Of a stretch of DNA of 54,335 bases, positions 6,750 to 28,506 are shown piece after piece. The stretch's first letter is position 1; every line of letters starts with the position of its first letter. Both the position numbers and the translations under genes were made by a program. A model generated the notes under the pieces. The model ran no database searches, was not told the origin of the DNA, and was given only the letters and a program-made list of their open reading frames with translations. The stretch is from Acidimicrobiales bacterium (lineage in GTDB: Bacteria; Actinomycetota; Acidimicrobiia; Acidimicrobiales; Iamiaceae): contig JAGQSN010000095.1 of assembly GCA_020439555.1 (NCBI GenBank), positions 1 to 54,335 on the forward strand, given 5' to 3'.

Positions 6750-9452
6750 ATGAGGACGACATCTCCGAGCAGCCGGACGCTCGTATGGTCTCGACCGATT
6801 GACGCCACCGACTCGTTTCGACCTCTCCTCCGTTCGGAACCGTCGGAAGCGATGTTGGCGGCGGCCCGAGAACGCAGGCGTGGCGCGTCGACCGCAGCCC
6901 TGAGTCGCTGGCTCGAAGGAATCGACCTCGCGGCGGTCATGCGATCTCACCGCGATCCTGTGCCGGTCAGGGGAAAGCTGACTGCGGCGGGATTCGATGC
7001 ATTCGATGCAGAGGGTGCCGTCAGTTCGTTCCTCGCGTCGCACCATCTCGGTGACCCGACGCTTCCGCCGGGGGATCAGCGCCTCAAGCACGCCCGTGAC
7101 GGTCAGGACCGAAATCTCGCTCCGACGCCGGAGATGACGCTGCCACGGACATCGAAGTACGGGACGCGGCGGTGCAGTCCGGCGGCGGTCGTCGAGGCCT
7201 TGGCGACCGGTACGTCGTTCTCGATCGCGTCGATGGACGAGTCGATCCGTTCGCTGGGTGAGGTGTGCGCAGTGGTCGAGTGCGTCGCAGGCACACGAAC
7301 AGGCGCGCTCGGTTATCTGAGCGGTCCCGGCGCGATCGGCTGGGGACCTCATTTCGACGACCACAACGTGCTGGTCGTGCAGATCGTCGGCTCGAAACGC
7401 TGGTCGCTCCTGGAGCCCGTCGAGTCCCGGATGCAACTGCCCTACTCGCCCTACAGGGTGTCCGCGGATGTCTGGGACTCGGCAACGATGGAGCCGGGCG
7501 ACGCGGTGTTCATTCCACGAGGGTGGGGTCACAGCGTTGTGGGCGGCGAGTCCGGCTCGTTCCACTTGACGTTCCCGTTGAGCGTCGTGACCGCGGGGAG
7601 GGTGCTGGCAACGGTCACGACGTCGCCCAACAAGGCGAGCCTTGTCGGAGATGACATTCCCCCCGGAGCCAGGGCGGAACTGGGTCCGTTCATCGCCTCC
7701 TTGTCATCCAGGTCCGTCGAAGGGGCCGTGAACGTGGTCGCGGCTCATCGGCCGGGCCGCTGCTGGAACTCCTTCTCGGAGCTGTACAGGTTCCGTCGCC
7801 AACTCGTGGAGGGAGGACGGCCGGACGGTGACGTGACGTTCGAGATATCGGCGTCGTGTTCTCCGGTGGCCCTGGACTTCCCGGAAGACGAGTGGTCGAT
7901 CGTGGTCGCGATCGGCGGAACCGTGTTCGGTGTCGCCCGGTCCCTCGTTCCGGCGCTCGCTGCGTTGATGGTCGGTCCCGTCGGCTGGGATGACTTGATG
8001 GGGACGGTCGGAGGGCGGACCGGGATCTCCGATTTGCTCGTGGCGTTGTTGGATGCGGACGTGCTCCAACTGAACCCGGACCGTTCGCTCGGGCGGAGCA
8101 GCGTGGTCGATCACCGGTCCCGGTCGCGCTTCGATCTTCCGGCTGCGGACCGACTGGACGAACCGACCCTGGTCCAGATCGGTCCCGAGCCATGGCCGAC
8201 CCGTACGGTTCGAGGTCTGAACGGATCCGACGAATGGGAGGCGCAACTCATCTCTGCCCTCGAGAACGGTGACCGTGGGGCGAGGGAGACGTTGCGATCG
8301 CACATCGAAGGGTTCGATCTTTTCGAGGAACTCAGCCGGACCAGGTCCCCCCGACTGGCTCGCGGGCGTCTTGGCCGACACGCGCCTGCGTCGCTACGTG
8401 GACCTAGCTCCGTCGACGAGTTCATCGCCGGTCACGATGCGGCGGGCGCAAAGCTGGTTGTTGCGTCCGACTCGAACCCGTTGAACCAACGGGCTCCCGA
8501 CACGGTCCGATCGGTCGCTTACAGCGTATACAGCCCGGAAAAGATCAGCCCTGGTCGGCTGTCTGCTTTGATCGACCGATCGGTCACGGCGATCATCCTC
8601 GGGATCGACGAATCGATCGCCGAGATCGCCGAATGGGTCGGACTGCTGGAGCGTGTCGCGAGACGGCGTTCGGGTGCCAACGCCTACATCAGTTCCGGCG
8701 AAGCTCCGGGTTTCGGTAGCCACTGGGACGACCACGATGTGTTGATCATTCAGTTGTGCGGTACGAAGGGGTGGGAGGTATACGAACCGGTGGAGCGAAG
8801 TCCGATTCGACCGACCTCCCCCGAAGACGTGTCGAGTCGGCTCGTCTGGGCCGGTGACGTCCACACCGGAGATGTCATGTACGTACCTCGGGGCTGGGGC
8901 CACCGAGTGACCGGATCGGACTCGTTGAGCATCCACCTGACTTTCCCGTTGCGGGCGGTGAGCGCAGCGATGATCGCCGAGACGGCTCTTTCGACGGTCC
9001 AAACAGGCGTTGCCGATATTCCTCCCGGCAGTGGCAGGTGGGACGTTCAACTCGACTCCGAGCGGGTCCGGCGCTGCGTGGAAGAGGGACTGGCCTACTG
9101 GCGATTCCGTGCTCCTCCGCGTTGCCATCAAGACCTGTGGGCAGCGTCGTCGTTCGCCGCTCGTGGCGCTGGTGCCTCCACGCCGGCTGAGATCCGTTGG
9201 GCAGCCTGCACCGGACTCGGCGTGGTGAACACGGAAGCTGCACCTGGCAGACGGACCCTCGTGGCAGGTGGTCGGACGATCGACGTCACAGAGGACGCAG
9301 GTGCTGTGCTGGTCACGCTCCTCGACGGTGAATGGCACGCAATCCAGGATCTGACCGTGCACCCCGACCGACGCTCCGTCGATGACCTGTTGCGCCGCCT
9401 CGCTGCGGTGGGACTTGTCGAATTGCGGGCCCCACTGGGGGCTGAAGGTTGA
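6750..9452 (+). CDS. Tandem double JmjC/cupin (ROX/YcfD-like) Fe(II)/2OG hydroxylase
   Basis: Domain 1: GWGPHFDDHNVLVVQIVGSKRW...PGDAVFIPRGWGHSV. Domain 2: GFGSHWDDHDVLIIQLCGTKGW...GDVMYVPRGWGHRV. Each is followed by a winged-helix-like segment. Confidence 0.9.
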   Translation: MRTTSPSSRTLVWSRPIDATDSFRPLLRSEPSEAMLAAARERRRGASTAALSRWLEGIDLAAVMRSHRDPVPVRGKLTAAGFDAFDAEGAVSSFLASHHLGDPTLPPGDQRLKHARDGQDRNLAPTPEMTLPRTSKYGTRRCSPAAVVEALATGTSFSIASMDESIRSLGEVCAVVECVAGTRTGALGYLSGPGAIGWGPHFDDHNVLVVQIVGSKRWSLLEPVESRMQLPYSPYRVSADVWDSATMEPGDAVFIPRGWGHSVVGGESGSFHLTFPLSVVTAGRVLATVTTSPNKASLVGDDIPPGARAELGPFIASLSSRSVEGAVNVVAAHRPGRCWNSFSELYRFRRQLVEGGRPDGDVTFEISASCSPVALDFPEDEWSIVVAIGGTVFGVARSLVPALAALMVGPVGWDDLMGTVGGRTGISDLLVALLDADVLQLNPDRSLGRSSVVDHRSRSRFDLPAADRLDEPTLVQIGPEPWPTRTVRGLNGSDEWEAQLISALENGDRGARETLRSHIEGFDLFEELSRTRSPRLARGRLGRHAPASLRGPSSVDEFIAGHDAAGAKLVVASDSNPLNQRAPDTVRSVAYSVYSPEKISPGRLSALIDRSVTAIILGIDESIAEIAEWVGLLERVARRRSGANAYISSGEAPGFGSHWDDHDVLIIQLCGTKGWEVYEPVERSPIRPTSPEDVSSRLVWAGDVHTGDVMYVPRGWGHRVTGSDSLSIHLTFPLRAVSAAMIAETALSTVQTGVADIPPGSGRWDVQLDSERVRRCVEEGLAYWRFRAPPRCHQDLWAASSFAARGAGASTPAEIRWAACTGLGVVNTEAAPGRRTLVAGGRTIDVTEDAGAVLVTLLDGEWHAIQDLTVHPDRRSVDDLLRRLAAVGLVELRAPLGAEG

Positions 9453-10600
9453 GCACGGTCGAGGGTGTGACGGTCGCGGACCTTCCGGCGTTGGCAGACG
9501 TCCGGCTACCGGATCCGGCCAGATCGGAATTGGAGGCCGTGATGGCGGCGTCGAACGAGCGTCGATTGCGCCTCGCCCGGGAAGGTTGCCTCGTAGGGCT
9601 TCCCGAAGTCGGAGTCGATGCGTGGCGGGACGGCAAGGACGTCCAGCCCGCGATCACTTCCGTGACAGAGATGTCCGGATTCTCGATGGATCTCGTGACC
9701 GAAGCGTGCCTCGTCACTCATGCTGCGCACGTGGTCCCATCGGACCCGGACACGGACGCCGTGGAAGTCGGCAACGTCGCCGATGCCGGACGTGCGATCG
9801 AGGCGGGTCAGGTGATCCGATTGCTGCACGGCGCGGATCTCTTGCCGGCTGTCGGAGCACTGGCCGACGACCTCGTCGCGTGGCTCTGGGCACGTTGCGA
9901 CGTGGAGCTGTCGCTCGCAACGGCTCCTTTCGACGGGCTCGGGCTCTGGCGGGACAGTGATGTGATCGTGATTCCTCTCCTCGGGGCACTGCACGTCTCA
10001 CTCGTCGGGCCCACGAGGTCCGCCCCTGGCCCGAACGATCCCCCGAAGGGGCCGCCCATCTGGACGGGCATGGTCTCCCGATCGACTGCGTTGCGCCTGC
10101 CCCGGGGTTGGGGCTTCGTCGCATCGGCGCCGAGCGAGGTCGCATGGGCCGAGATCACCGTCCGCCGACAACGTGGTTCCGACGTCGCCCGTTTCATCGC
10201 CGACCGGGCGCCGTTCCATGTGGCCTTCCGGGAGGACGCTCCGTTCTCGCTCGACGCGGTCGACCCTGCACCGGATTCGATCTTCGGTTCGCCCGACGGT
10301 CTGCGGGACCGACTCGTCGAACTCGACCTGGATAGCCTCGCCACGATGGCCGCCGCGGACTGGAGGGCTCGACTCGCTCGCGCGACACCCGAATCGCTCG
10401 CCCGAGTGTTGGGTGGTCCGACAGGGGCGTTCGATGACTCCCTCGGTGGTCTGATGGTCGTCGATCGCCTCCCTCCCAACTCCGAGCAACTGCGAGATCA
10501 CGAGTGTGCTGTCGCTGGTGGTGGCCTCGTCGTACGGGGGCTCCCGTCGCAGCTGGCTGCCCTGCTCGAATCCGATTCCGTGGGCGAGCCCGGGAGTTGA
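9449..10600 (+). CDS. Degenerate JmjC/cupin paralogue (metal ligands lost)
   Basis: LWRDSDVIVIPLLG aligns with HWDDHDVLIIQLxG, and LPRGWGF aligns with IPRGWGH. TTGA overlap with the upstream gene. Confidence 0.75.
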   Translation: MSTVEGVTVADLPALADVRLPDPARSELEAVMAASNERRLRLAREGCLVGLPEVGVDAWRDGKDVQPAITSVTEMSGFSMDLVTEACLVTHAAHVVPSDPDTDAVEVGNVADAGRAIEAGQVIRLLHGADLLPAVGALADDLVAWLWARCDVELSLATAPFDGLGLWRDSDVIVIPLLGALHVSLVGPTRSAPGPNDPPKGPPIWTGMVSRSTALRLPRGWGFVASAPSEVAWAEITVRRQRGSDVARFIADRAPFHVAFREDAPFSLDAVDPAPDSIFGSPDGLRDRLVELDLDSLATMAAADWRARLARATPESLARVLGGPTGAFDDSLGGLMVVDRLPPNSEQLRDHECAVAGGGLVVRGLPSQLAALLESDSVGEPGS

Positions 10601-11898
10601 GTCGGTTGGGTGAACAACTGGACGGAAACCTCATCTCGGTCGAGACAGGGCTTCCGCTCCCACACGTCCGCCCCCCGCGGTCCGACGGAGCCACGTGGGA
10701 GAGGATCCTGCTCACCTCCTCGGAGACAGCGGTCGCGGACTCGATGCATCGGCTCGAGGCCCGAATGCCGATCCACGCGCTGTTGGCGGCCGAGTGGGCA
10801 ACGGTGCCGACCTCCGTCGAGATCGACGATTGGTTCGGCGGCGTGGAGCATTGGGAATTGATCGACACGCTGCTCGGCGTCGGACACGTTCCGTCCCGGA
10901 GGATCCTCGTGTGCGACGGATCCGATCTGGTCGCTCCCGAAGCGATCCCCGCCGATCCGCTCGCCTTCGACGTCGAACGACCGAACCTCCCTTGGCTGAT
11001 GAACCATGCGACTTCGGGTGGTGGGTTCCTCCTCTCGGAGGTCGACCTCGTGGACCAGGGTGTCGGCCGCAACCACGAGGACCTGGACAGGGTCACCCTG
11101 GCTCGGACGCGCTGCGACCTCGGAGTAGTGGGGGAGGGGGCAGTACTGCACCAGCCACACGACAACGCGGCGAGGATCGTGATGGCGATCGATCGTCCTG
11201 TCCTCGTTCAGACCCACGCGGCGCCGGGCGATGGTCACTCGGCACCGCTCCCGACGAGTCACCGTGTCGAGCCTGGTACCGGTCTTCTGGTCCCCATGGG
11301 TCGCGGATGGCGTGTCAGTGGAGACGGCGCCGGTGCACTCGTGTCGATGATCGTCGTTCCGCGCTGGCGGGTCGTCGATCTGGTCGAGGAGATCGAGTTC
11401 GAGTCCCTCTTCTGGCCGATGCTGCGCGCCGACGTACCGTCGGATCTCGACGAACCGATCCTCTCCTACAGCGGAAGTGTTCTGGTCGACGGCTTCGACC
11501 GGGCCGCGGAGTCGATATGCGGTGAACTCGCGCTGGCCAACATCACGGCCCGGAGGCGTGCGCGAATGCAGGCGCGCTGGTCGACGCGACTGTCTGTCGC
11601 TGCTGGCTTGTTCGGTGTATCGCTGGCGGTGGACCCGGAGGTGCGTTGTCCGTTGCCGGGCGGGCTCCAGGTTGCTTCCGTGTCGACGGACACAGAGCCC
11701 GTCCTCTACGGCGCAGGCCGTCGCTACAGGGTGGACGCAGCGGCCGCGGCGGCTGTGGCGCTGCTCAGCGACGGTCGGGTTCACACTCGTTCCGAGGTTC
11801 TGGGCTTCGCGCCTGACGGTCTCGATCCATCCATCTGGAGTTCGGGGTTGATCCAGGAAGCGATGGGCTGCGGGATCGTCGAGGTGGTCAGGACATGA
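10597..11898 (+). CDS. Degenerate JmjC/cupin paralogue with C-terminal winged-helix domain
   Basis: VEPGTGLLVPMGRGWRV aligns with LEPGMFVSIPRGWAHDV. LRADVPSDLD resembles FREDAPFSLD of the upstream paralogue, and the C-terminal RCPLPGG...LYGAG...LLSDGR...GIVEVV matches the downstream one. TTG 10597 overlaps the upstream TGA. Confidence 0.7.
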   Translation: MSRLGEQLDGNLISVETGLPLPHVRPPRSDGATWERILLTSSETAVADSMHRLEARMPIHALLAAEWATVPTSVEIDDWFGGVEHWELIDTLLGVGHVPSRRILVCDGSDLVAPEAIPADPLAFDVERPNLPWLMNHATSGGGFLLSEVDLVDQGVGRNHEDLDRVTLARTRCDLGVVGEGAVLHQPHDNAARIVMAIDRPVLVQTHAAPGDGHSAPLPTSHRVEPGTGLLVPMGRGWRVSGDGAGALVSMIVVPRWRVVDLVEEIEFESLFWPMLRADVPSDLDEPILSYSGSVLVDGFDRAAESICGELALANITARRRARMQARWSTRLSVAAGLFGVSLAVDPEVRCPLPGGLQVASVSTDTEPVLYGAGRRYRVDAAAAAAVALLSDGRVHTRSEVLGFAPDGLDPSIWSSGLIQEAMGCGIVEVVRT

Positions 11899-13190
11899 CT
11901 CTCGAACCGCTGGCACCCCTCGATCCTCTCGGCGAACTCCGGCCGTCGGAGGAGCGCGATCCGATCGCTCGCACTCTCGAGACCGCTCGTCTGCGAGGAG
12001 TGTCGGACAGCGCACGGGTGTTGAGCGAACTGCTGTCCGGCTGCGACATTTCCGAGTCCGTGCAGAGGACCGACGGCGGGACGGTGCAGATCGGTTCTCT
12101 CGCATCCGGGTTCGCGGACGTGTTCGACCCGTGGCAGATCCTCGACGGTCTGTTCGGTTCGGGAGGCGTGGACGGCCTCAAGGTGTCGGTCGTGAGGGAA
12201 CGGGCGTCGTCACCGTTGGGGAACATCGACGACGCGGTGAGTAGTCGACCGGACGCACCCTGGGTGGTCCCCGTCGGTCGGGTCATGGATGCCTTGAGCC
12301 AGGGGTTCACTGTCGTGCTCGACGGTATGGACCGTCGCAACCGCTTGCTGCGCCGATTGTCCGAGCACCTGGCACGAGCCTTTCAGTGTCCCGTGAACAT
12401 AAACGGTTACTTGAGCCTTCGTCCGGACCCTGGATTCGGGGTCCACTGGGACGACCACGAGGTCATCATCATCCAACTCCTGGGTCGCAAGCACTGGAAG
12501 ATCCACCAGCCCGTCACGCTCTCCCCGACAGGCACCACCCATCCCGTCAACGAAGCTGGAGACCTTGCCTGGGAAGGCGATCTCGAACCGGGGATGTTCG
12601 TCTCGATTCCCCGGGGGTGGGCACACGACGTGTCGGGCATGGACGAGCTGACCTTCCACCTGACCCTCACGATCCCTCGCCGGAACATCTCCCGCGTCAT
12701 CCGGTCGAGCATCGAAATGAACTCCTCGGACGCCAGGGCCGTGACACTCGTCGACGGCGGAGATCCACCGCTGGGATTCGTTCTCGACAGCATTCGCGAG
12801 AACTTTCGTGGCGTCATCGCCCGCGACCGGGCCTCATTGGCAGCGGTTTCATGTCAGATCCCGTCGGCTTTGTTCCGGGCTCTCGACCAGGAAGCCGCGG
12901 ATCCTCACCTCGCGGTCCGGAGTCCGTTGCCCGGAGGTGGCACGCGCTGGCGGGACGAACACGGTGAATCTGTCCTGTTCGCCGGCGGAGGTCATTTCCG
13001 GGTGTCCGACGGGTATCTGTCAGTTCTGGCAGAACTTCTCGACGGCAGGACACGCACGGTGCAGGAGATCGAGGCCGCCTCACCCGAACCCGCGACGGTG
13101 GTCCGCTCCGTGGTCGCCGGCGCACTCCGGGTAGGTCTCCTGGAGGTCGTCGATGATCCGACGACCTGGGGGATCGTCCGAGCGGAGTAG
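11895..13190 (+). CDS. JmjC/cupin (ROX-like) Fe(II)/2OG hydroxylase
   Basis: NINGYLS..GFGVHWDDHEVIIIQLLGRKHWKI...IPRGWAHDV..FHLT, followed by a C-terminal winged helix; ATGA overlap. Confidence 0.92.
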   Translation: MTLEPLAPLDPLGELRPSEERDPIARTLETARLRGVSDSARVLSELLSGCDISESVQRTDGGTVQIGSLASGFADVFDPWQILDGLFGSGGVDGLKVSVVRERASSPLGNIDDAVSSRPDAPWVVPVGRVMDALSQGFTVVLDGMDRRNRLLRRLSEHLARAFQCPVNINGYLSLRPDPGFGVHWDDHEVIIIQLLGRKHWKIHQPVTLSPTGTTHPVNEAGDLAWEGDLEPGMFVSIPRGWAHDVSGMDELTFHLTLTIPRRNISRVIRSSIEMNSSDARAVTLVDGGDPPLGFVLDSIRENFRGVIARDRASLAAVSCQIPSALFRALDQEAADPHLAVRSPLPGGGTRWRDEHGESVLFAGGGHFRVSDGYLSVLAELLDGRTRTVQEIEAASPEPATVVRSVVAGALRVGLLEVVDDPTTWGIVRAE

Positions 13191-13191
13191 C

Positions 13192-14496
13192 TCAGTCGGT
13201 GCCGAAGGCGGCGTCGATGCTCCCGACGAGCGTCGGGAGAGAACGCGTCGTCCGGTACTCACGCTGGACAGTCACCGAACCATGCAGACGCCGTATCGCA
13301 TGCACGATGGACGATCGGTCGTCACTGTCACCTCCGGGCGACGTGCGCGCGAACAGCGCGACCTCGTGCATCGGGAGCTCGGCTTCGGGTCGGTTGCCCC
13401 GAGCCCACAGACCTCGAACCGGGAACCGGTCGAAGGTGACATCGTCGAGCGATGTCATGTCCGCCCGGGGGACTGCCACGTGATCCGAGGTGGCGTCGAG
13501 GTAGACCCGCGGCGCGGGGATGAGGCTTATGCCGTGGCGGGCGAGTTGGCGCAGCATTCCGCGCGGCTGTTCCAGGGAGGAGCGCGGTGCGAGGACGACG
13601 GTTCCGTTCTTCTCGAGGGCGTGAACTCTCAGTTCGATGTGGTCCGGTGGCGGTGCTAGATCGGCGTGCAGGAGCAGCAACCTGCTGATCCCATCCCGTA
13701 TCCGGTCTCTCTCTACGGTGCTCGCGACCAGAACTCCGCCCTCGTCGTACAGCCCGAAACGGCGTGGTCGACCAGGGGCGTCGTCCACCGTGACGTAACA
13801 AACCGTCGGACCTCGCTCCAGTTCACGGTCGACGGCAGTCGAACGCCGCGCCCACTCGGCGATCTCGGCGTCGGTGGTGCGCACGCCGTTGGTTCGCCCG
13901 CCGACCGGGACACGGACGAGGTGGGCCTCGCGGTCCAGTTGAAGCTTCCGCCCGAGGCACGAGGTCGGCGGGATCATCTCCAGCGGCGAAGCCTGCCCAT
14001 AGCTCACCGCCGCCGATTCCTCCTTGGTGAGGTTGAACTCGGTCACGAGGTACTTGACACCGTCCACGACCTCGAAGCTCTCGACGTAGTCGCGCTGATC
14101 AGTGGCTGGGGCCAGCGCGTCCCAGGCCGAACGCACCTCGTCGAGACCGGAGGCGAGCCCGTTGAGGGCCAGGTCGAGCGCGAGCGAGGTGACGTGTCGT
14201 CTCGCTGTCTCCGGCCCTACTCCGGTCGCCTCGATGATGTCGGTCGTCAGCTCAGCGAGGGTTACGGAGCCGTCGAGGAGTTCCCAAAGGGTCGCCGTGA
14301 GTCGTGGGAAGACGAAGGGTGGGTGATCCCGCGCCCACACGATGCTGCCGTCCGATCCGAACCGCACTGTGACGACATCGGGATGGCGGATGGGCCGGGC
14401 GTGCTCGGCTGCGCGGTGCAGCGTGACGTCGAGATCCGAAGTGGCCGAGGGTAGACCCCCTGCTGGAACGGTCACCTCAAAGGTGGGAGGAGACAC
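13192..14496 (-). CDS. PqqD/RRE domain fused to degenerate HprK-like domain
   Basis: N-terminal RHPDVVTVRFG...TATLWELLDGSVTLAELTTDI...LALDLALNGL is PqqD-like. C-terminal LRVHALEKNGTVVLAP resembles the HprK pre-P-loop strands but lacks GxSGxGKS. Confidence 0.75.
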   Translation of the reverse strand: MSPPTFEVTVPAGGLPSATSDLDVTLHRAAEHARPIRHPDVVTVRFGSDGSIVWARDHPPFVFPRLTATLWELLDGSVTLAELTTDIIEATGVGPETARRHVTSLALDLALNGLASGLDEVRSAWDALAPATDQRDYVESFEVVDGVKYLVTEFNLTKEESAAVSYGQASPLEMIPPTSCLGRKLQLDREAHLVRVPVGGRTNGVRTTDAEIAEWARRSTAVDRELERGPTVCYVTVDDAPGRPRRFGLYDEGGVLVASTVERDRIRDGISRLLLLHADLAPPPDHIELRVHALEKNGTVVLAPRSSLEQPRGMLRQLARHGISLIPAPRVYLDATSDHVAVPRADMTSLDDVTFDRFPVRGLWARGNRPEAELPMHEVALFARTSPGGDSDDRSSIVHAIRRLHGSVTVQREYRTTRSLPTLVGSIDAAFGTD

Positions 14497-14534: not shown

Positions 14535-15119
14535 TCAGTTGCAGACGCAGGTCATGTTGATTCGAAGTTGACCGTCAGGGTCGTCCTGGTAGTAGCCGCC
14601 TCCACCCTGGCAGTCAGGTGTCGCCTGCTGAGTCCCGTTCGAGGTGAAGTTGAACGTCCCGCCGCCGTTACGGAAGCGGAAAGAGCCGCCGTTGTTGCAG
14701 TTGCCGGCAACGTTCACGGTGCAGGCCTGGTTGGCGGAGTTCGTGAATCCGTTGACGGTCAGGTTGACGATGCCGTTGTCGTCGTTGACGCTGCCGGAGA
14801 TCGCTCCGTTGAGGGTGAACTTTCCGCCGACGTTGGACGGACCGAAGTTCCAAGTACCGCAGCAGTTGTTGCCCCAGCACTCCGTCGATCCCACAGAGCA
14901 GTTGTTCGAGTTCTTGGTGATCTGGGATATCGACCCGCCGCTGCAGGAGGCCGCGGCGGCGTAGTCGGGTGCCACCGACAGTCCCTCGATCCGTGGCGCC
15001 GTCCAAACGGCTGCCGCGGCGGCGCCGCCGAATGCCGCCTTGATCGCGGCACGCCTCGAAACGGCCTGCTCGTCGTTCGTTCGTTCGTTCGAATCGTCGG
15101 CGGTTGGTGTTTCAGCCAT
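14535..15119 (-). CDS. Tat-signal, Asn/Cys/Gly-rich secreted protein; putative modification substrate (194 aa)
   Basis: ATG at 15119 with a GGAGG upstream. Leader SRRAAIK..AAAAAVWTAPRIEGLSVAPDYAAAA; the 137-aa mature part has 10 Cys and 23 Asn by manual count. Confidence 0.85.
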   Translation of the reverse strand: MAETPTADDSNERTNDEQAVSRRAAIKAAFGGAAAAAVWTAPRIEGLSVAPDYAAAASCSGGSISQITKNSNNCSVGSTECWGNNCCGTWNFGPSNVGGKFTLNGAISGSVNDDNGIVNLTVNGFTNSANQACTVNVAGNCNNGGSFRFRNGGGTFNFTSNGTQQATPDCQGGGGYYQDDPDGQLRINMTCVCN

Positions 15120-15564
15120 CGACCAGTCCCTCCTCCAGGTCGTCGAGCACACGCTCGGCGAACATCTCCGGGTTGTCGACCACGTACGTGGCCAGGATTT
15201 GACGTTGGGGCGAGATGAGGTACGCGATGCGGTTCGCGTAGGCGGCAGTCCCGTCCTCGCCTGCCACGCCGTAGGCAACCCCGACCTTCCGATCGAGGTC
15301 GCTGAGCAGGGGGAATCCGAGGTCGTACTTGTCGGCGAAGGCACGAAGGTCTTCGACCGGATCGAACGATGCACCGAGCACTCGGCATCCGAACCCGTCG
15401 AACACCTCGATGTGGTCCCTGAGTCCCTGCGCCTGTGCGACGCACCCAGGTGTGTCCGCTTTCGGGTACCAGTAGAGCAGCGTCAACTGGTCCCCCAAGG
15501 ACTGGTTCTTGCCCTGCTGGTCCAACAGCGTGAAGTCGGGCGCGCGCTCCCCCACGTCGAGCAT
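15112..15564 (-). CDS. bcp: Peroxiredoxin, BCP/PrxQ type
   Basis: VGERAPDFTLLDQ, YWYPKADTPGC (PxxxTxxC), VLGASFD, FPLLSD and NRIAYLI. ATG at 15564. Confidence 0.9.
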   Translation of the reverse strand: MLDVGERAPDFTLLDQQGKNQSLGDQLTLLYWYPKADTPGCVAQAQGLRDHIEVFDGFGCRVLGASFDPVEDLRAFADKYDLGFPLLSDLDRKVGVAYGVAGEDGTAAYANRIAYLISPQRQILATYVVDNPEMFAERVLDDLEEGLVDG

Positions 15565-15654
15565 GGTCCGCACCGTAGTCGCGACCCGCCACTCGGACAA
15601 CGGACCGAGCGCAGAATGTACAGAGATAGTTCGAAAGGCCCAAGCGGCCATTAC

Positions 15655-16551
15655 TCAGAACGTGCAGAACAATGCCTGCTTCACCTGTCTGTCCAGGGTG
15701 TAGTCGATGCCGATGTCGAGTTTCAGGTGAGCCAGCCGGTCTGTTCGCTCTGCGGCGAAGCGGTGAAGCTCGGAGAATGCAGCTGATCGTCTCAGGAAGC
15801 GGTCGGATCCGCTGAAGGGAACCCCATCGAAGTAGACGCCTTCGCTCTGGGGCTTCACCGCGTAGTGGAAACCTTCGAACTCGTCGGGGAGGAAGAGTTC
15901 GCCGTCGGTCTTCGTGATGTGGATCGAGGATCGTAGGGCGTTGTGGACGTCGCTCAGGGTTGCAGTCGGGTAGTGGGCGTAGATGTTGCGGTGGTCGATA
16001 CCGTCGGCCGTCAGGCGGTAGGAGAGCCCGCCGGGGCGGGTCAGTGGCCCGAAACCTGTGTAGAAGTTGATCGAGTCGATCGCTTCGATTCCGTCGAGGT
16101 TCTGCGCTGTGACGTCGAGCGACACGACGTCACAGCGTTCGAGCGGGGCCCGGTGGATAGCGGCGTCGATTCCCAGACCTTGGTCGATCGCTGCGAGGAA
16201 CGTTTCGATGCCTTTGCTGCCGTCGGTCAAGCGGTACCAGTACAGCTCCCATGACAGTTCATCTCCGTGCGCCACGACGGAAGCCACGATCCTGTCGTTG
16301 CCGACAGATGACCTCAACGTCGTGATCACATCGCCCCATCGGTGCATCCGGCCCGGGTCGCAGGCGAGGAGGAACGCAGTGCTCGACAGAGAGCCTGTCG
16401 GTGCAGGATCGAGGCCTACCTCCGTCGCTTCGCGCAGCAGGAATCCCGTACGAGCAGGTCTCCCTTCGGTCGCAGCGAGACACTCGCAGAGTTCGTCCAA
16501 AGTGGCTGTCGGGTCGGGTCGGGTCGTAGCCGTCCCGTCCTTCTCACTCAT
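15655..16551 (-). CDS. Hypothetical protein (possible beta-barrel enzyme)
   Basis: 298-aa ORF overlapping the PhyH stop by 8 bp. Aromatic strand motifs WELYWY, VVSLDV, INFYTG, RNIYAHY, YAVK, GVYF and LDIGIDY. Confidence 0.75.
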   Translation of the reverse strand: MSEKDGTATTRPDPTATLDELCECLAATEGRPARTGFLLREATEVGLDPAPTGSLSSTAFLLACDPGRMHRWGDVITTLRSSVGNDRIVASVVAHGDELSWELYWYRLTDGSKGIETFLAAIDQGLGIDAAIHRAPLERCDVVSLDVTAQNLDGIEAIDSINFYTGFGPLTRPGGLSYRLTADGIDHRNIYAHYPTATLSDVHNALRSSIHITKTDGELFLPDEFEGFHYAVKPQSEGVYFDGVPFSGSDRFLRRSAAFSELHRFAAERTDRLAHLKLDIGIDYTLDRQVKQALFCTF

Positions 16552-17629
16552 CTGTCGCCGTTTCGATCTCGTCCACGAGATCGTGGAGCATCTCGACGGG
16601 TGGAGTCTGCGTGGTCCCGTCGAGGAGACCCCGCAGCGCTTCTTCCTCGATCCCGTCGAGCTGGCATTCGAAGTTGCGGGTCACGGGTCGTGACGGATTC
16701 CTGGAGTACAGGAGCGCGGGAGTCTCCTCGAGGAAGAACTGTTCGTCCACGTCGAACTGCAGGTAACCCGACTCCGTTCGGGCGAAGTGGACGAGGCTTC
16801 CCCCGCTTCGGTGGCACCACATTCCGACTGCCAGGCGTGGCGTCGCGGAGTTGTTGTCGAAGGACATGTGGATCAGACGGTTGTCCCAGATCGCAGCCTC
16901 GCCGGCCTTGAGCGGTACAGCGACCGACCTCGCGCGCAGTTCGTCACGGAACCGCAGCCAGGGCCAGATCGCCTTGGTGCCGCAGGGACCGCCGGGCAGG
17001 AGGTGCGAGCGTGGGACGACGCGGACCATGCCGTTGGAATCGGTGGCGTCGTCGAGTGCGACGTAGATGATGTAGGACCGATCCCCGCTGAGTTCGTCCA
17101 CGTACATCCAGTCGCGGTGCTCCTCGAGGGTCGACCTGTCGCCGCTGAACTTGGCGAGGTAGGTGTAGAGGAATGGGGTGAACCCTGACATCCAGGTTCG
17201 TTCCATCCCACCCATCTCTTCGTGCATGACCTTGCTGGCTTCACGGCGGAAGGTGAGGTCTGGCAGGAAGAAGTCGTTGTGGAAGCCCGTACGGTCGGCC
17301 GGAAATCGATCGAGGAAGAAGCCACGGAGTCGAGCACACGAATCCGAATCGAGTTGGATTCCGGGCAGCCTCACCCACCCTTCGCGTCGCAACACCTCGT
17401 CGAGAGCGGGGTCGTTGAGAACCCGATCTCCGTCAGGCCACTGGTCCCGCGACCGAACCGACGGGACCCATTCGGTCTCGGGAGACTGAGGTGACGTCTC
17501 GAATTGCCCTCGCATGATGAGCTCGTCTCGCTTCAACCACCGCGACGCCTCCACGGGGAGGTGCCTGGTGTTCGTCGTGGGCCGCAACCCTATTTCCCGT
17601 CGGATCGGTTCGTCGCCGCTGATCGACAC
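16544..17629 (-). CDS. Phytanoyl-CoA dioxygenase (PhyH) family Fe(II)/2OG dioxygenase
   Basis: REGWVRL, EHRDW (HxD), YVALDDATDSNG.VRVVPRSH, LKAGEAAIWDNRLIHMS and PRLA motifs. Start uncertain (17629 or 17515). Confidence 0.9.
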   Translation of the reverse strand: MSISGDEPIRREIGLRPTTNTRHLPVEASRWLKRDELIMRGQFETSPQSPETEWVPSVRSRDQWPDGDRVLNDPALDEVLRREGWVRLPGIQLDSDSCARLRGFFLDRFPADRTGFHNDFFLPDLTFRREASKVMHEEMGGMERTWMSGFTPFLYTYLAKFSGDRSTLEEHRDWMYVDELSGDRSYIIYVALDDATDSNGMVRVVPRSHLLPGGPCGTKAIWPWLRFRDELRARSVAVPLKAGEAAIWDNRLIHMSFDNNSATPRLAVGMWCHRSGGSLVHFARTESGYLQFDVDEQFFLEETPALLYSRNPSRPVTRNFECQLDGIEEEALRGLLDGTTQTPPVEMLHDLVDEIETATDE

Positions 17630-17665
17630 GGCAGGACTCGGATTAGGTCCGGGCGCATCAGGGCG

Positions 17666-18919
17666 TCAGGCTTCCCCCGCGACGAACCCGAGTTTCGTCA
17701 GGTCTTCGATCAGGCCCAGATCCGTCTCCTCGGGCCGCTTCGTACCGTCGAGATTCCTCCACACCTGCGTAGCCGAAGGGTTCAGGTGGGCGATCGAGCG
17801 ATCGGTTAGCCGGTACAGGACGGCCTCTTCGGCGACGACGACCGACACGACGTCGGCCGGCCGGTGAGGGTGAGGACCGGGCAGCGAAGGTGGGACCCGG
17901 AGGGGTTCTCCGCCTACGGGTGCCGGTGCTGTCGCCTCCATCAGCGCTGCGGCAGCTTCCCTACTGTCCCCGTACCGGATGGCGAGGGCAGGGACATGAT
18001 TGGCGAAGGACGCGAACGCGAAGAGGCAACCGGTTGGATCGGTCGTCACGTCGAAGGAGTTCTCCAGGCATGCCATCACGGACTGTGCAGGTCTGAGTGG
18101 AGTGATCTCGATAACCCGCTGCTGTTCGTCGTCCTCGTCGACTCGGTCGAGGACGACGAACAGCAGCGGCGTCGCGTCGACCGGGACCGTTGCCGTGGGC
18201 GGATGGAGCGATCGGAGCGAGAGGAGTCCCGGGCGCCTCATCGAGACCGGCCTCGGGGACGCAATGACTCGGTGACCGGTAACAGCGACCACCTCGTCGT
18301 TCACGATCCCCCCGAATCGGTCGAGTGCGAGCCCGAACGTGCTCTTGCCGCTCCCTGACGGTCCGGTCACGAGGACAGCCCCATCCTGGGTGAGGACCGT
18401 GGCTGCGTGCAGGTGGGGCCAGCCCGGTTCGGCGGTGAGCGTTCGATGCGTCAACCAGGGGAGGATCTGTTCGACGACGGCGTTCTCGTCGAGGAGATAG
18501 GTGCAACCTTCGACGATCAGTTCGACCGCGTCGCCGAGGTGACGGCACTCGATCACAGCGTCCACGCTTCGGCGGGTCTCGACGATGCTCGCGCCGAAAG
18601 CCCGCCGGAGCGGATCCAGTGCGGCCTCGTCGGCCGCTACGGGTACCTCGCCCCAGGACTGGAGGATCGAGTGCGTCGACGGCTTCGGGGGAACCGGACG
18701 CGCGGCGACTGCTCGCCGGCGCGCCTGGATGTGGCGCCACGGTCCGATGACGGGCGCGGCCAGGACCTTCTCGACGTTCCAGATCCGCTCCCCGAGCCGT
18801 CGGATCGCAGTGGAGGTTCCGGATCGATCGTGCGACGGAACGTCGTTCCCGGCTCCACGGTCGAGGCCTGGATCGAGTTCGCCGCTCCCACCTGTGGTGG
18901 TCTCCACGTTGGCTTCCAC
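17666..18919 (-). CDS. HprK-related kinase with C-terminal PqqD/RRE domain
   Basis: HLHAATV..GAVLVTGPSGSGKST and VNDEV kinase motifs. The C-terminal DVVSVVVAEEAVLY...HLNPSATQVWRNLDG...LIEDLTKLGFV is PqqD-like. Confidence 0.88.
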   Translation of the reverse strand: MEANVETTTGGSGELDPGLDRGAGNDVPSHDRSGTSTAIRRLGERIWNVEKVLAAPVIGPWRHIQARRRAVAARPVPPKPSTHSILQSWGEVPVAADEAALDPLRRAFGASIVETRRSVDAVIECRHLGDAVELIVEGCTYLLDENAVVEQILPWLTHRTLTAEPGWPHLHAATVLTQDGAVLVTGPSGSGKSTFGLALDRFGGIVNDEVVAVTGHRVIASPRPVSMRRPGLLSLRSLHPPTATVPVDATPLLFVVLDRVDEDDEQQRVIEITPLRPAQSVMACLENSFDVTTDPTGCLFAFASFANHVPALAIRYGDSREAAAALMEATAPAPVGGEPLRVPPSLPGPHPHRPADVVSVVVAEEAVLYRLTDRSIAHLNPSATQVWRNLDGTKRPEETDLGLIEDLTKLGFVAGEA

Positions 18920-19043
18920 GTGCTCGTTCCGTCAGGCGGTGTTTGAACCCTGCCAGATCGTAGTTGGAGCAGATGCGACGGTCATTGGACCGTGGAGCGG
19001 CGCTACCGAACAGCCACGTGCGGAATGAGCAGTCGGGGAGACG

Positions 19044-20084
19044 TCAGTTGAGGGTCAGATACACGTATCCGTCGACGCCGTGGTAGCCGTGCTCGTTCGT
19101 GCCGGCCGCGCCACCGTTGGACCCGGCCCGCGCCGTCACCGAACCGGTTACACCCAGCACGAACGCGGAGCCGCTTCCGCCGCCACCGCCACCGTCGTTG
19201 TTGCCGCCACCGGCGTCGCCGCCACCGCCGCCGCCGCCGCCCCAGTGGCCGCCGCCACCGCCGCCTCCGCCGCCGCTGTCGTCAGATCCATCGGACTGGC
19301 CCGCACCTCCGTTCCCGCCGGAGCTCTGTGTCCCTGCGCCACCGTCGTTGCTGTCGGAAGGCCAACCCGATTCACCTCCGGCGCCTCCGCTGGACGTCCA
19401 GCCGCCCCCGCCGCCCTTGCCGCCGTAGGTGATCTGACCGGCTCCGCCGGAGAGGCCGGCGGAGGCGTTGTTGTTCGCGATCGACGTGCTCAGGTTCGAG
19501 CCGCCGTAACCGCCGTGGTAGCCCGGATCGTCTCCGGAACCGCCGCCACCTCCGCCGCCTGGGGCGACGATGTTTATCGACGTCGAGTACGACAAGCGCG
19601 TCGCGCCGCCGCCGCCACCACCGGCTCCGGCGTTGCTCGGTCCGTCGGCGGCGTTGCCGCCCTTGGGGGAACCGGTTCCGCCGCTACCGGATGTGGACCC
19701 GATCCGGTCGGCGTTGCGGCCCTGCTGCCCGATGACGATGGTGAGGGTGTAGTAGCCGGCTCCGCCTGGTGCGGCGATGTCGCCCTCGAGTTCTGTGCCT
19801 TTCCCTCCGGCACCACCGCTGAGACCCGACTTCGTGCCGCTACCGCCGCCTCCGCCTGCGCCGCTGATGCGGAAGTGGACGCTCCGCGCCTTCGGAACCC
19901 CGACGGAATAGGTACCGGCCGCTGTGCGGCTCTATGGGAAGTCCGAGGTGGCGGCGGCAGCGGGTGATGCCAGGCTGTCGACGACAACGGGTGCCGCCCA
20001 CGCTGCGCCGGCGACCAGTGCCCCGGCTCGCAGGACGCGGCGACGTTCGACGCTCAGATCTGCGCCCGGTACTTCTTCCACCAT
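19044..20084 (-). pseudogene. Tat-signal glycine-rich secreted protein (346 codons) with one in-frame TAG at codon 51
   Basis: GGAGGG RBS and ATG at 20084, giving MVEEVPGADLSVERRRVLRAGALVAGAAWAAPVVVDSLASPAAAATSDFP*(19934-19932). The frame then stays open (SRTAAGTYSVGVP...ISGAGGGGG...TLTIVIG...GGGGGAT...) into the 19044-19595 ORF. Confidence 0.8.
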
Positions 20085-22202: not shown

Positions 22203-24059
22203 TCACGAACGTGGCAGAGGGCGGAGGTGGCGTTCGGCCCACTCCTGCAGAGCGAGAAGGTGCCACAGAGGCCTCGAGTTGTCCTGGCCCATCTGATGGG
22301 AGTCGACCAACTGTCGGACCTCGTTCCGGTCGAACGCGTCCGCTAGTACGACCGGGTTCTCCACGACGCGCTCGACCAGTCGATCGGACAGAGCGCCTCG
22401 GAACCAGTTTGCCAACGGCGGATCGAATCCCTTCTTCGGCTTCGTGATGATCGACTCCGGCACGTAGTCCGCCAAGGCCTGGCGGAGTGGCAGCTTGCCG
22501 ATGCCCCCGTCCATGCAGACCTCGGGATCGGTGGCGATCGCGGCGCTGACGACCTCGTCGTCCAACAACGGGACGCGCACCTCGAGCGACTCGTGCATGC
22601 TGGCGCGGTCGACCTTCAGGAGCATCTTCTCGAGGTGGCCGACCATTTCGTTCCGTCGGAGCCACTGTGCGAGTTCAGCGCGCTTGGGGACACTCTCGAG
22701 GTCGTAGAGGTCGAAGTCGCCCGGGAGTTCCCCGAGGCCCGGTGCGATGGACCTCAACCGACGGCCGCCGAACTCGGAGTGGGGCAGCGAGACCATGTCC
22801 CCGATGGTCCCGATCGTGGAACCTTCGTTCGGCTGGAGGGACGGCCAACGATGCAGCGCCTTGCGGACGGCGCGGCGGGCGAGGGGTGGAAGGTGAAACG
22901 TCTGCCGCCACCGGAGCGCGTTCCACATCCTCGGATACCCGAAGAACAACTCGTCACCACCATCGCCCGAGAGCGCGACGGTCACGTGCTTTCTGGCCAG
23001 TCTCGACACCAGCATCGTCGGGAACGCCGAGATGTCACCGAAGGGTTCGCCGTAGGCATCGATCACGTCGTCGAAAAGGTTCAGAGCGTCCGTCTCGGTG
23101 ATCGTCTCGACCTGGTGTGCGACCTGGAGTTGCCTCGCATACCGGGCGGCCTGCCCGCTCTCGTCGAGGTCGACGTCGTCGGTTCCGATGGTGAAGGCAG
23201 GCACCGGTGCCGAGTGGCCCGCGTGCGCGACAGCCGTAACGAGTGGCGAATCGATGCCACCCGAGAGAAAGGTGCCCACCGGGACGTCGGCGACCAGTTG
23301 CCGGTCTACGGCGGTTCGGATCGCGGAAAGGACTTGACGCTGAGCCTCGTCTCCCCGCAGGAGCGGTGGCGAGGCCTCGGGAACGGCCCAGTACCTCGTG
23401 TGCCGGACCGGGCCGTTCGGCGACCATCGGACGATGCTTCCCTGTGGAACCTGTCGAGTTCCCTCGACGATGCCGTACGGCGACGGCACGTAACCGAATC
23501 GGAGGAACAGCGCTGTGACGTCGGGTCGGAGTCTCTGGCGCTCGCACCACGGATGGCGGATGACGGCGTCGTACTGGGAGGAGAAGACGATCCCCTTCGG
23601 GTGCTCGAGCCAGGCCAGCGGCTTGATGCCGAGTGGATCGCGGGCGAGGAGGACGGAATGGTCGCGCCGGTCGACGAGGGCGAGGGCGAACATTCCGTTC
23701 AAGCGAGGGAGCGCGTCCTCTCCCCAGCGGACCAGCGCGTGCAGGACCACCTCGGTGTCCGAGCGCGAAACGAAACGGACTCCCTCGCTCTCGAGGTCTG
23801 CGCGGAGGGACCTGTGGTTGTAGATCTCACCGTTGAACACCAGTGCCCAACGTCCATCGGGTGTGGTCATGGGCTGGTGGCCGGCAGGGGAGAGGTCCAT
23901 CACGGCCAGACGCCTGAATCCGAGCGCGGAGTGGCTGTCGACCAGGTGTCCGGAATCGTCCGGCCCCCGGCGGGCGAGTAGATCCGTGAGTCGGTGGGTC
24001 GCTTCGACCTCGGCGTCGGTCAGTTCACCGCGTGAGATCGTGCCGACGAAGCCACACAT
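22203..24059 (-). CDS. asnB: Asparagine synthase (glutamine-hydrolysing) family amidotransferase
   Basis: MCGF N-terminus, RRGPD, FNGEIYN, LSGGIDS, ALSGDGGDELFFGY and KVDRASM..SLEVRVP. Confidence 0.95.
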   Translation of the reverse strand: MCGFVGTISRGELTDAEVEATHRLTDLLARRGPDDSGHLVDSHSALGFRRLAVMDLSPAGHQPMTTPDGRWALVFNGEIYNHRSLRADLESEGVRFVSRSDTEVVLHALVRWGEDALPRLNGMFALALVDRRDHSVLLARDPLGIKPLAWLEHPKGIVFSSQYDAVIRHPWCERQRLRPDVTALFLRFGYVPSPYGIVEGTRQVPQGSIVRWSPNGPVRHTRYWAVPEASPPLLRGDEAQRQVLSAIRTAVDRQLVADVPVGTFLSGGIDSPLVTAVAHAGHSAPVPAFTIGTDDVDLDESGQAARYARQLQVAHQVETITETDALNLFDDVIDAYGEPFGDISAFPTMLVSRLARKHVTVALSGDGGDELFFGYPRMWNALRWRQTFHLPPLARRAVRKALHRWPSLQPNEGSTIGTIGDMVSLPHSEFGGRRLRSIAPGLGELPGDFDLYDLESVPKRAELAQWLRRNEMVGHLEKMLLKVDRASMHESLEVRVPLLDDEVVSAAIATDPEVCMDGGIGKLPLRQALADYVPESIITKPKKGFDPPLANWFRGALSDRLVERVVENPVVLADAFDRNEVRQLVDSHQMGQDNSRPLWHLLALQEWAERHLRPLPRS

Positions 24060-24133
24060 CTCCCCCTCCTTCGGCTCCGGTGCGTCGACGGATCGTATGC
24101 GTTCGACATCCGGAGCAGTGCAGTGCCCGACAC

Positions 24134-25357
24134 CTATCGACGCCGCTGGATGGCCGTCTCGTAGAAGCTGATCCAGTCGTCGAGTTGATCGTGAAGTCCG
24201 AATCGGGTTCTCGCCCGTTCAGCGCCCGCGTTGCCCATGGCGGCTCTCTTGTCGCCGTCTGCGGCGAGAGCATCGATGGCGCTCGCCATCGATGCGGGGT
24301 CCCGGCGCCCAACGACCAGGCCGGTGCGACCGTGTTCCACGTTGTCCGCAAGTCCGTACGCGTCCGTGCTGACGACCGGGACCCCGTGTGCCTGGGCCTC
24401 GAGAGCGGCGTTGCAGAATCCCTCGAACGTCGACGCCTGGACGAAGAGATCGGCCCACTGGAACTGCTGTGCCACTTCGTCCGCCGGAAGAGCACCGACG
24501 AAGGTCACGATCTCGTCGAGACCGAGGTCGTGCCGCCAGTAGTGGACCCATTCGAAAAGGTCACCGTCACCGACGATGCGGACCTCGACGTGGAGCCCTT
24601 GGTGCACCGCTCTTGCGATGGCGTCCAGCATGTGGTCGTAACCCTTGACCCAGTGGAGCCTCCCGACAGCCAGAATCCGCAGTGGCGAGTCGACGGTGCC
24701 GAGTCGTCCCGGCCGGGGCTCGGAGATCTGGATGGAGTCGGCGTCGACGGCGGGAGGGATGACGGTGTGGGCAAGGTTCTCCGGTGCCCCGCGTTCCAAC
24801 GCTCTCCTCCACAGCGCCTCGCTGAGGACGTGGATGCCGTCGGCGGAGGTCCAGACGTCGCGGTAGTGGTTCGCGTTCTCCAACCCGACGTAGGCGAGAT
24901 CGAAGCCGCGGAAGGACACGGTCATCGCGGTGCCACCGTGTTGGCCGATGTCGGTGCGTCCTACGGCCAGTGAGCCGAACTCGAAGTGCACGACGTCGGC
25001 CCGGAGGCGTTGAACGGGTGCGTCCGCCAGGAGATGCCTGATCCGCGCGCCCCATCCATCGGTGTCGTTGCTCAGGTAGTTGCGTCGGACTGGTGCGGGA
25101 ATCGCGGCGGCAGCGCGCGCGTGTTCGGCCAACGAAGCCGTGATGGTTCCGCGGCGAATCGATGGCGCGGTCAGGTGAACCCTGTCGCGGAGCCCGTGGA
25201 TCCTGTGACCTGCGGCGAAGTTGTCCCACTCCTCCTTCGGGGACGAGGCGCAGACGATGTGGACGTCGACTCCACGTTCGGCGAGCCCGACGGCCTTGTT
25301 GCTGACGAACGTCTCGGACAGCTTCGGGAACGTGGGCACGACGAGAACCACCCTCAC
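24134..25357 (-). CDS. GT4 glycosyltransferase (WcaL-like)
   Basis: FPKLSETFV, VSFRGFD, VGRLHWVKG and EGFCNAALEAQA (Ex7E). Confidence 0.92.
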   Translation of the reverse strand: MRVVLVVPTFPKLSETFVSNKAVGLAERGVDVHIVCASSPKEEWDNFAAGHRIHGLRDRVHLTAPSIRRGTITASLAEHARAAAAIPAPVRRNYLSNDTDGWGARIRHLLADAPVQRLRADVVHFEFGSLAVGRTDIGQHGGTAMTVSFRGFDLAYVGLENANHYRDVWTSADGIHVLSEALWRRALERGAPENLAHTVIPPAVDADSIQISEPRPGRLGTVDSPLRILAVGRLHWVKGYDHMLDAIARAVHQGLHVEVRIVGDGDLFEWVHYWRHDLGLDEIVTFVGALPADEVAQQFQWADLFVQASTFEGFCNAALEAQAHGVPVVSTDAYGLADNVEHGRTGLVVGRRDPASMASAIDALAADGDKRAAMGNAGAERARTRFGLHDQLDDWISFYETAIQRRR

Positions 25358-26553: not shown

Positions 26554-26615
26554 CAACGCCGCGAACCGTAGCGTGTCGTCCAGCCGACATTTCCGAGGGG
26601 GAGCACGCGGTACCG

Positions 26616-28328: not shown

Positions 28329-28506
28329 CTTCGAAGCTGCCACCGGAACTCTGCTGGGACCCGGCGCGCGCCGGCATGGATGGAACGCGCGGTCGCGTGG
28401 AAGAATGGCCGACCGCACCCCCCTGGGCCGCTCCAGCGGTCGCCCTGACATTCTCTGATCTCATGCTGAGAGGACGACTCGTGGCCAGGAATATGTTTCT
28501 ATCGGC

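Follow-up and report, generated by a model that had tools for sequence, protein, structure and literature searches.

In a 54,335-nucleotide stretch of an Acidimicrobiales bacterium (family Iamiaceae; assembly GCA_020439555.1, contig JAGQSN010000095.1, positions 1 to 54,335 of the forward strand; hereafter, the window), two unrelated, probably secreted proteins share a twin-arginine translocation (Tat)-type leader with an internal W-x-A-P-x-[IV] motif. With a probability of roughly two in three, this leader is first a docking site for a RiPP recognition element (RRE; RiPP, a peptide synthesized on ribosomes and modified post-translationally) and then a Tat export signal, with RRE-linked enzymes modifying the cargo before it exits. 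Because the leader carries an RRE motif and its genes lie mostly beside RRE or kinase genes, it is likely that entire proteins are tagged by the signal for modification. The evidence comes from the anatomy of the leaders, the folds of the RRE and kinase domains, and the linkage of the corresponding genes.

Leaders of the two window proteins

The elements of the two leader-bearing genes are as follows.

14949..15119, minus strand: leader 1, 57 amino acids, with twin arginine (RR), hydrophobic region (h-region), WTAPRI (15005-14988), an EGLSVAPDY extension and an AAAA site
14535..14948, minus strand: mature part of protein 1, rich in Asn and Cys (10 Cys), starting with SCSGGS; a paralogue is on contig C168
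19950..20084, minus strand: leader 2, 45 amino acids, with ATG preceded by GGAGGG, RR, h-region, WAAPVV (20000-19983) and an AAAA site
19932..19934, minus strand: in-frame TAG, five codons past leader 2
19044..19931, minus strand: Gly-rich body of protein 2 (295 residues, of which 110 are Gly and none is Cys)

The first-pass annotation of this DNA had described a twin arginine, an h-region, the W-x-A-P-x-[IV] motif and an AxA-type site in both leaders, and all of these, along with the translations, were verified. It had also considered the mature parts unrelated, in agreement with a best BLAST match of 15 bits (E of 0.98). By sequence, both leaders have the attributes of a Tat signal (twin-arginine motif, h-region and N-terminal AxA site). 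They also have the arrangement of lasso-type leaders, [Y/W]xxPx[L/V/I] about 15 to 16 residues ahead of the cut. In 43 of 58 long-type leaders, 15 to 17 residues separate the W from the end of the last AxA; the leaders had been selected for W and P but not for the spacing between W and AxA. If cleavage occurs after AAAA, the distance from W to the cut is 19 residues in leader 1 and 17 in leader 2. Ser or Thr is present at positions +1 to +3 in 50 of 58 and 22 of 28 leaders, the former set being the long-type one.

It is possible to view these sequences instead as RiPP leaders that are cut by a dedicated signal-peptidase-like enzyme and exported by an ATP-binding cassette (ABC) pump, as in the LPP systems of Bacillota, with the RR and h-region unused by Tat. 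Consistent with this, the window has an MsbA-like ABC gene (28459-30324), located 8 kb away among exopolysaccharide (EPS) genes; S26 peptidase genes adjoin leader genes at three loci of the short leader type described below; and the Tat signal model TIGR01409, which matched 49 of 58 leaders at an E of ≤0.1, did not match leader 2 at that threshold and gave leader 1 16.3 bits, slightly below its cut-off of 16.7. However, a twin-arginine motif with hydrophobic residues at +3/+4 recurs in both leader types, RR and h-region are absent from the LPP leader consensus, and cargo mostly of 100 to 570 amino acids with even Cys counts suits export in a folded state. Furthermore, the single S26 peptidase gene found in the genome is on another contig (C342; no SipW-specific model was used). 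Export by such a route therefore seems improbable.

The leader-2 frame ends with AAAA/TSDFP at the TAG (19934-19932), and a Gly-rich body of 295 codons lies in frame beyond it. The first-pass annotation was right about the leader of gene 2 and overlooked both this stop codon and the neighboring kinase. Because an in-frame TAG follows leader 2, the gene is broken in this assembly, and it is best read, from the sequences compared, as a nonsense allele. The TAG was also present on contigs of runs X1 and X3, one of which is possibly the source sample, so that a pure sequencing error is unlikely. One contig from X2 has TGG (Trp) at this place, at a depth of 3.4 and 38 bases from the contig end, which is possibly an error, and the orthologue in genome G092 has an aromatic residue, Phe, at this position. 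The body of protein 2 is 53% identical over 133 amino acids to this leader-bearing G092 protein. Gly-rich leader-bearing proteins form a family (window 19044-19931, L001, L005, L006/L007, L009 and L092), with four in this genome and a hydrophobic strand at the end; a short-type relative weakly matched the glycine-rich domain of ALK/LTK.

No sigma-70-like promoter was detected, and two terminator-like sites were at chance level. Contigs from RNA runs yielded three short identical pieces only, which is no evidence of transcription, and an Atlas search with protein 1 gave no match above 0.9.

RRE domains and kinases beside the leader genes

Between 20084 and 13192, the minus-strand genes follow one another with overlaps or short gaps, in the order leader-2 protein, kinase-RRE, PhyH dioxygenase, unnamed protein, peroxiredoxin, leader-1 protein and RRE fusion. 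The proposal that a PqqD-type gene lies downstream of each leader gene was borne out, by a PF05402 match in 13192-14496 and by a structural RRE in 17666-18919.

17666..18919, minus strand: HprK-fold kinase (~18424-17909) with a short lasso-type RRE (~17869-17672); start codon uncertain
13192..14496, minus strand: N-terminal RRE (14388-14128; PF05402, 25.0 bits against a cut-off of 23.4) with a C-terminal domain of a Walker-A-less family

The kinase-RRE protein retains the motifs of the kinase family (HAA, Walker A GPSGSGKST and DE). In its structural model (mean predicted local confidence [pLDDT], 78), the kinase part overlays HPr kinases (Z, 10.4 to 10.7), and the last 66 residues overlay lasso RREs (TbiB1, Z of 9.5 at 1.7 Å; 6jx3, Z of 9.1), a winged helix of the B1-like kind, although by sequence most of helix 2 is missing. 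There was no Pfam PqqD match at the protein level and a partial one at the DNA level (E of 0.008). In the HPr-rel-A system (NCBIfam TIGR04352 and TIGR04355), an HprK-related kinase travels with PqqD-family genes. The window kinase scored 31.9 and 15.9 bits against these models of HprK-related kinases A and B, the cut-offs of which are 200, and it is not a member.

The motif [Y/W]xxPx[L/V/I] is bound through beta-strand addition by the RREs of lasso and LPP systems, and its aromatic residue is at -15 or -16 (Y-16 in LppA, W-15 in PbaA; PMC13381572). The first-pass annotation had cited Y/W-x-x-P-x-L as the motif recognized by lasso RREs; PMC13381572 gives the wider form for B1 proteins, and the RRE profile of the present set is nearest to three of these, TbiB1, PbaB1 and TfuB1.

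The remainder of the other RRE protein (13192-14496) belongs to a Walker-A-less family whose hidden Markov model (HMM) also scores true kinases (a transitive link, 44 bits). Because direct comparison of the profile of this domain with the kinase alignment was weak (probability, 1%), we only infer from the sequence that it is a degenerate kinase. Members of this family adjoin or are fused to RREs in the window (13192-14100) and at L004:4594-5625, L002:1562-2944, L094:8993-9787 and L098:8334-9113. The single-sequence fold of 13195-14496 was unusable (pLDDT, 33). Neither RRE-fusion protein had a relative in large-scale protein searches. Complex prediction for the first RRE (alignment A2) with leader 1 (A3), the only pair run, gave a score of 0.02, which is evidence neither way.

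These fusions bear on the idea that the RRE is a private export-control chaperone, like the signal chaperones of Tat redox enzymes, and that the kinases and nucleotidyltransferases act elsewhere, for example, on EPS intermediates. The loci do lie inside EPS islands, no modification site is conserved across the cargo parts, and stand-alone as well as redoxin-fused RREs exist. However, at many loci the RRE is fused to a kinase, nucleotidyltransferase or degenerate kinase, which ties the enzyme to whatever the RRE binds, and the same enzyme trio phosphorylates the LPP precursor. Thus, it seems unlikely that the RRE is solely a chaperone.

The remaining genes of this part of the window are as follows.

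16544..17629, minus strand: PhyH-type dioxygenase dependent on 2-oxoglutarate and Fe(II) (PF05721, 54.6 bits), a possible tailoring enzyme
15655..16551, minus strand: unnamed protein of 298 amino acids; look-alike clusters are partly aromatic prenyltransferases (PF11468, 11 to 41% of members), which is a lead only
15112..15651, minus strand: BCP-type peroxiredoxin; its stop overlaps the start of gene 1
6750..13190, plus strand: four convergent genes, of which two encode JmjC domains (three between them), one is weakly JmjC-like and one has no assignment; candidate tailoring enzymes for the leader-1 subtype

A fold similar to that of 15655-16551 was found in a JmjC/cupin-bearing cluster of giant-virus proteins (TM score, 0.68). 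RRE-redoxin fusions at L004:3834-4601 (C181) and L099:6779-7579 (G365), together with the window peroxiredoxin, may handle thiols of Cys-rich cargo. Elsewhere, the window consists of an EPS island encoding a Wzc-like kinase, glycosyltransferases, asparagine synthetases and an O-antigen ligase. Three asparagine-synthetase-like genes of the island lie within 22203-32186, one of them without a match to the glutaminase domain.

Leaders across the genome

The first-pass annotation had suggested scanning the genome for further substrates. All six frames were searched with the pattern RR-x(8-22)-W-x-A-P-x-[IV] plus a hydrophobic filter, which returned 8 leaders in total, the window pair and six more, compared to 1 in reversed frames and 0 to 4 in 10 local shuffles. 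An HMM built from the 8, which are thus its own seeds, scored them at 47.8 to 65.4 bits, and the next of 50,576 open frames scored 11.6 bits. Among 110 loose Tat-like candidates, many of them spurious, 8 had the motif, one by chance and the other 7 as members of the family; leader 2 dropped out of this loose filter.

Six of the 8 leader genes are within ~3 kb of an RRE gene: the window pair and those on C141, which overlaps the right end of the window, C181, C338 and C405, which joins C220 via a 35-base overlap. As for the other two, the leader on C168 is at a contig end, and that on C40 has no RRE neighbor. Each of the five HprK-like kinase genes of the genome has at most one other gene between it and a leader gene, and 9 of the 10 RRE-like domains of the genome are at leader loci. 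Nucleotidyltransferase genes were found on C181, C220 and C274, beside leader genes on the first two. TatC, a component of the Tat translocase, is encoded on C428 (228 bits).

Co-occurrence in other genomes

The first-pass annotation held that the docking site serves the PqqD domains and that this would fail if the motif were equally common in genomes lacking RRE genes. Genome tallies gave a different picture: with few exceptions, RRE and HprK-like genes were present in leader genomes, in many cases adjoining the leader genes, which supports docking at the genomic level. In a sample of 200 other genomes of the order (leader match at an E of <1e-4), PF05402 was found in 21 of 23 leader genomes versus 53 of 177 others, and the kinase was found in 21 of 23 versus 25 of 177; the 23 include G149, whose match is a long protein of another family and which was left out of the Fisher tests. 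In G057, the RRE was detected with our own profile. At least 17 of 56 leader matches in this sample were within 3 kb of PqqD, and at least 21 were within 10 kb. Among 300 genomes drawn from across the Actinomycetota, PF05402 was present in all 19 with leader matches and in 94 of the remaining 281, and at least 15 of 32 tabulated leader matches (those of G017 left out) were within 3 kb of PqqD. These counts describe a pattern rather than a probability, because related genomes are not independent.

A further possibility is that WxxP marks a mere subtype of actinobacterial Tat signals and that the link with RREs reflects shared residence in mobile EPS islands. There are leader-bearing genomes without the machinery and many orphan leader genes, and kinship inflates the counts. 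However, the link recurs across many families, two orders and two leader architectures, often gene to gene, and the motif with its spacing equals the structurally defined ligand of RREs. An RRE or kinase gene was within 1.5 kb at 26 of 44 motif loci compared to 0 of 12 other Tat matches. The link also held when the search began from the kinases: in a scan seeded with four close kinases, and limited to relatives of these, a WxxP leader gene was within 8 kb at 13 of 15 kinase loci (9 of 11 once four loci in genomes already encountered were set aside). Coincidence of this kind is considered very unlikely.

Two proteins fuse an RRE ahead of a twin-arginine leader and cargo (L119:4504-5124 in G033 and L093:18409-19074 in G193). 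In both, the W of WxxP is lost, as expected if the motif serves to recruit the RRE.

Some of the genomes are flagged as unpublished: G143 in the order tallies; G042 in the JmjC count given below; G408, G443, G365 and G341 (4 of the 19 leader genomes) as well as G201, G218 and G266 in the phylum tallies; and G365, G408 and G695 at kinase-first loci L137, L139 and L141. Some of these genomes also contribute rows to alignments A2, A3, A4, A6 and A7. Except for those rows, the results for G000, G092, G057 and G200 and for the short type involve no genome flagged in this way.

Leader subtypes

A short-type leader, in which the h-region is placed after WxxP, was found in another order. The initial expectation that this type is independent of PqqD was mostly not borne out by the PF05402 and kinase tallies. 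In one family, PF05402 was over the cut-off in 7 of 8 leader genomes versus 7 of 73 others; in the remaining leader genome, a kinase ending in an RRE-like tail and a nucleotidyltransferase adjoin the leaders. Across the whole order, the kinase was found in 14 of 17 leader genomes versus 22 of 114 others. One genome, G569, had 43 leader matches at an E of ≤0.01. The cargo genes of this type are mostly scattered, since machinery was within 1.5 kb at 0 of 21 short-type loci. Genes for S26 signal peptidases, AraC regulators, Wzc and phosphatases are present at L086 to L091, and in G500, tatA, tatC and an S26 peptidase gene are among the leader genes, with tatA and tatC located between them. Pilin and LPXTG genes are present at the short-type locus of G566.

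The EGLSxxPxY subtype, to which leader 1 belongs, was found in G000, G057 and G200, each of which has a JmjC gene next to leader, kinase or RRE genes. With three cases, the link between JmjC and this subtype is a lead only. A general link with JmjC was unsupported: JmjC was found in 26 of 201 genomes overall, and the four leader genes of G200 have no JmjC gene within 8 kb. JmjC genes beside the machinery are those of the window (6750-13190), L097:3471-4955 and L120:4529-6388; a sulfotransferase-like gene joins them in G057.

Comparison with known systems

The LPP systems of Bacillota (LppA/K/B/S/D/N), as described in the main text of PMC13381572, combine an RRE, an HprK-like kinase and an uncharacterized NTP transferase without a lasso cyclase, and they have a [Y/W]xxPx[V/I/L] leader motif ~16 residues ahead of a signal-peptidase-type cut, variable C termini and residence in capsule/EPS loci. 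LppK adds several phosphates to Ser3 (PMC13381572). The window likewise pairs an RRE with an HprK-like kinase, in an EPS setting. In contrast, the leaders described here have an RR and an h-region, whereas the terms "Tat" and "twin-arginine" are absent from the main text of that source; they have W rather than Y and no HQxIxFET motif; and the RREs are mostly fused. Scattered cargo of 100 to 570 amino acids (8 proteins here, 43 matches in G569) differs from the one to three precursors of 35 to 200 amino acids per LPP cluster, and the host phylum is Actinomycetota rather than Bacillota. The LPP leader consensus YxxPxVLxHQxIxFETxxS does not fit the present leaders, and no peptidase, and hence no dedicated SipW-like leader peptidase, was found among the window genes in a Pfam scan of 43 open reading frames.

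Paeninodin-type phosphorylated lasso peptides (PbaB1, TbiB1 and TfuB1) are similar in their WxxPx[L/I/V] leader, B1-like RRE fold and tailoring by an HprK-like kinase and NTP transferase. They differ in that the cargo here consists of large proteins and that no lasso B2 peptidase (PF13471) was matched in this genome, which is 77% complete. Two window asparagine synthetases scored 137.9 and 105.3 bits against the lasso cyclase model NF033535 (cut-off, 525), and both passed the cut-off for asparagine synthase. With neither a B2 peptidase nor a macrolactam cyclase found, a lasso peptide was rejected as a reading.

Bufferins and other MNIO RiPPs offer a precedent for an export signal that doubles as a recognition sequence: a Sec signal replaces the leader, preliminary data suggest that it is part of the recognition sequence, and masking until modification has been proposed (PMC12452194; for the Sec signal as recognition sequence, see also PMC12710340; a term search of PMC7470986 gave no relevant match). 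These systems differ in using Sec rather than Tat, a DUF2063-RRE partner, MNIO chemistry and no defined RRE motif. Neither an MNIO nor a DUF2063-RRE domain was found in the Pfam scan of the window, and the signal here is of the twin-arginine type. The window system works like LPP and paeninodin tailoring yet belongs to neither; it is set apart from LPP because the leader consensus does not fit and no dedicated peptidase was found, and from lasso peptides because no B2 peptidase or cyclase was found.

Proposed function

Four lines of evidence, namely, the RRE profile, the spacing of the W, the position of Ser or Thr and the loss of the W in fusions, suggest that the leader recruits RRE-tethered enzymes. 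By analogy with the lasso and LPP structures, W and P would occupy a first pocket of the RRE and [IV] a second, with the following residues adding a beta strand. The HprK-fold kinase might then, like LppK, phosphorylate Ser or Thr just past the cleavage site, and NTP_transf_5 enzymes from other loci of the genome could add to this phosphate; the leader-1 subtype may be a target of JmjC/PhyH oxygenases. The RRE may mask the signal until modification is complete, after which TatC would take the leader and signal peptidase would cut at AxA. One enzyme set could serve many scattered cargo genes, and the cargo most likely consists of cell-surface proteins made alongside exopolysaccharide.

Several observations weigh against recruitment followed by Tat export. 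Walker A is missing from the domain at the C terminus of 13192-14496, and the window has no nucleotidyltransferase gene. The acceptor Ser or Thr is not invariant, and these residues are common after actinobacterial signal peptides anyway. Among the matches listed for the order sample, 35 of 56 leader matches had no PqqD within 10 kb. Six genomes have a strong kinase but no leader match, and in none of the six was a WxxP leader near the kinase. Conversely, in the order with the short leader type, G652 (99% complete, three leaders) and G691 (one leader) are real exceptions that show no kinase, nucleotidyltransferase or convincing RRE, and G666 has weak remnants of the machinery only. A family of Tat proteins of ~525 amino acids with W-x-x-P-x-L-like stretches occurs at L031, L033 and L034, in three genomes without PF05402 matches. 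Finally, leader loci, including motif loci of the 1.5-kb comparison, supplied part of the sequences behind the kinase and RRE profiles, and the kinship of the genomes noted above counts here as well.

Implications

No description of Tat leaders paired with RREs was found in the open literature (subscription papers and supplements were outside the search). What is new is the genome-wide repertoire of unrelated full-size cargo, the two actinobacterial leader architectures and a quantified linkage with its exceptions. More tentatively, and with the balance somewhat against it, the system may represent a modification and sorting pathway found throughout the Actinomycetota, in which one Tat/RRE leader would route up to dozens of unrelated surface proteins via RRE-tethered kinases and nucleotidyltransferases, with leader subtypes choosing the enzymes (JmjC hydroxylases for some), so that RiPP logic would be applied to the secretome.

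If the proposed function is correct, it would assign a role to a kind of Tat signal that recurs, so far unexplained, in actinobacteria, and it would mean that RREs act on folded exported proteins and not just on small peptides. The function of NTP_transf_5 and LPP-like products would become testable on large, easily handled substrates, and the leader might provide a portable "modify then export" tag. Many surface proteins of actinobacteria from soil and activated sludge would be predicted to carry an unrecognized modification with (poly)phosphate or phospho-sugar, tied to EPS loci.

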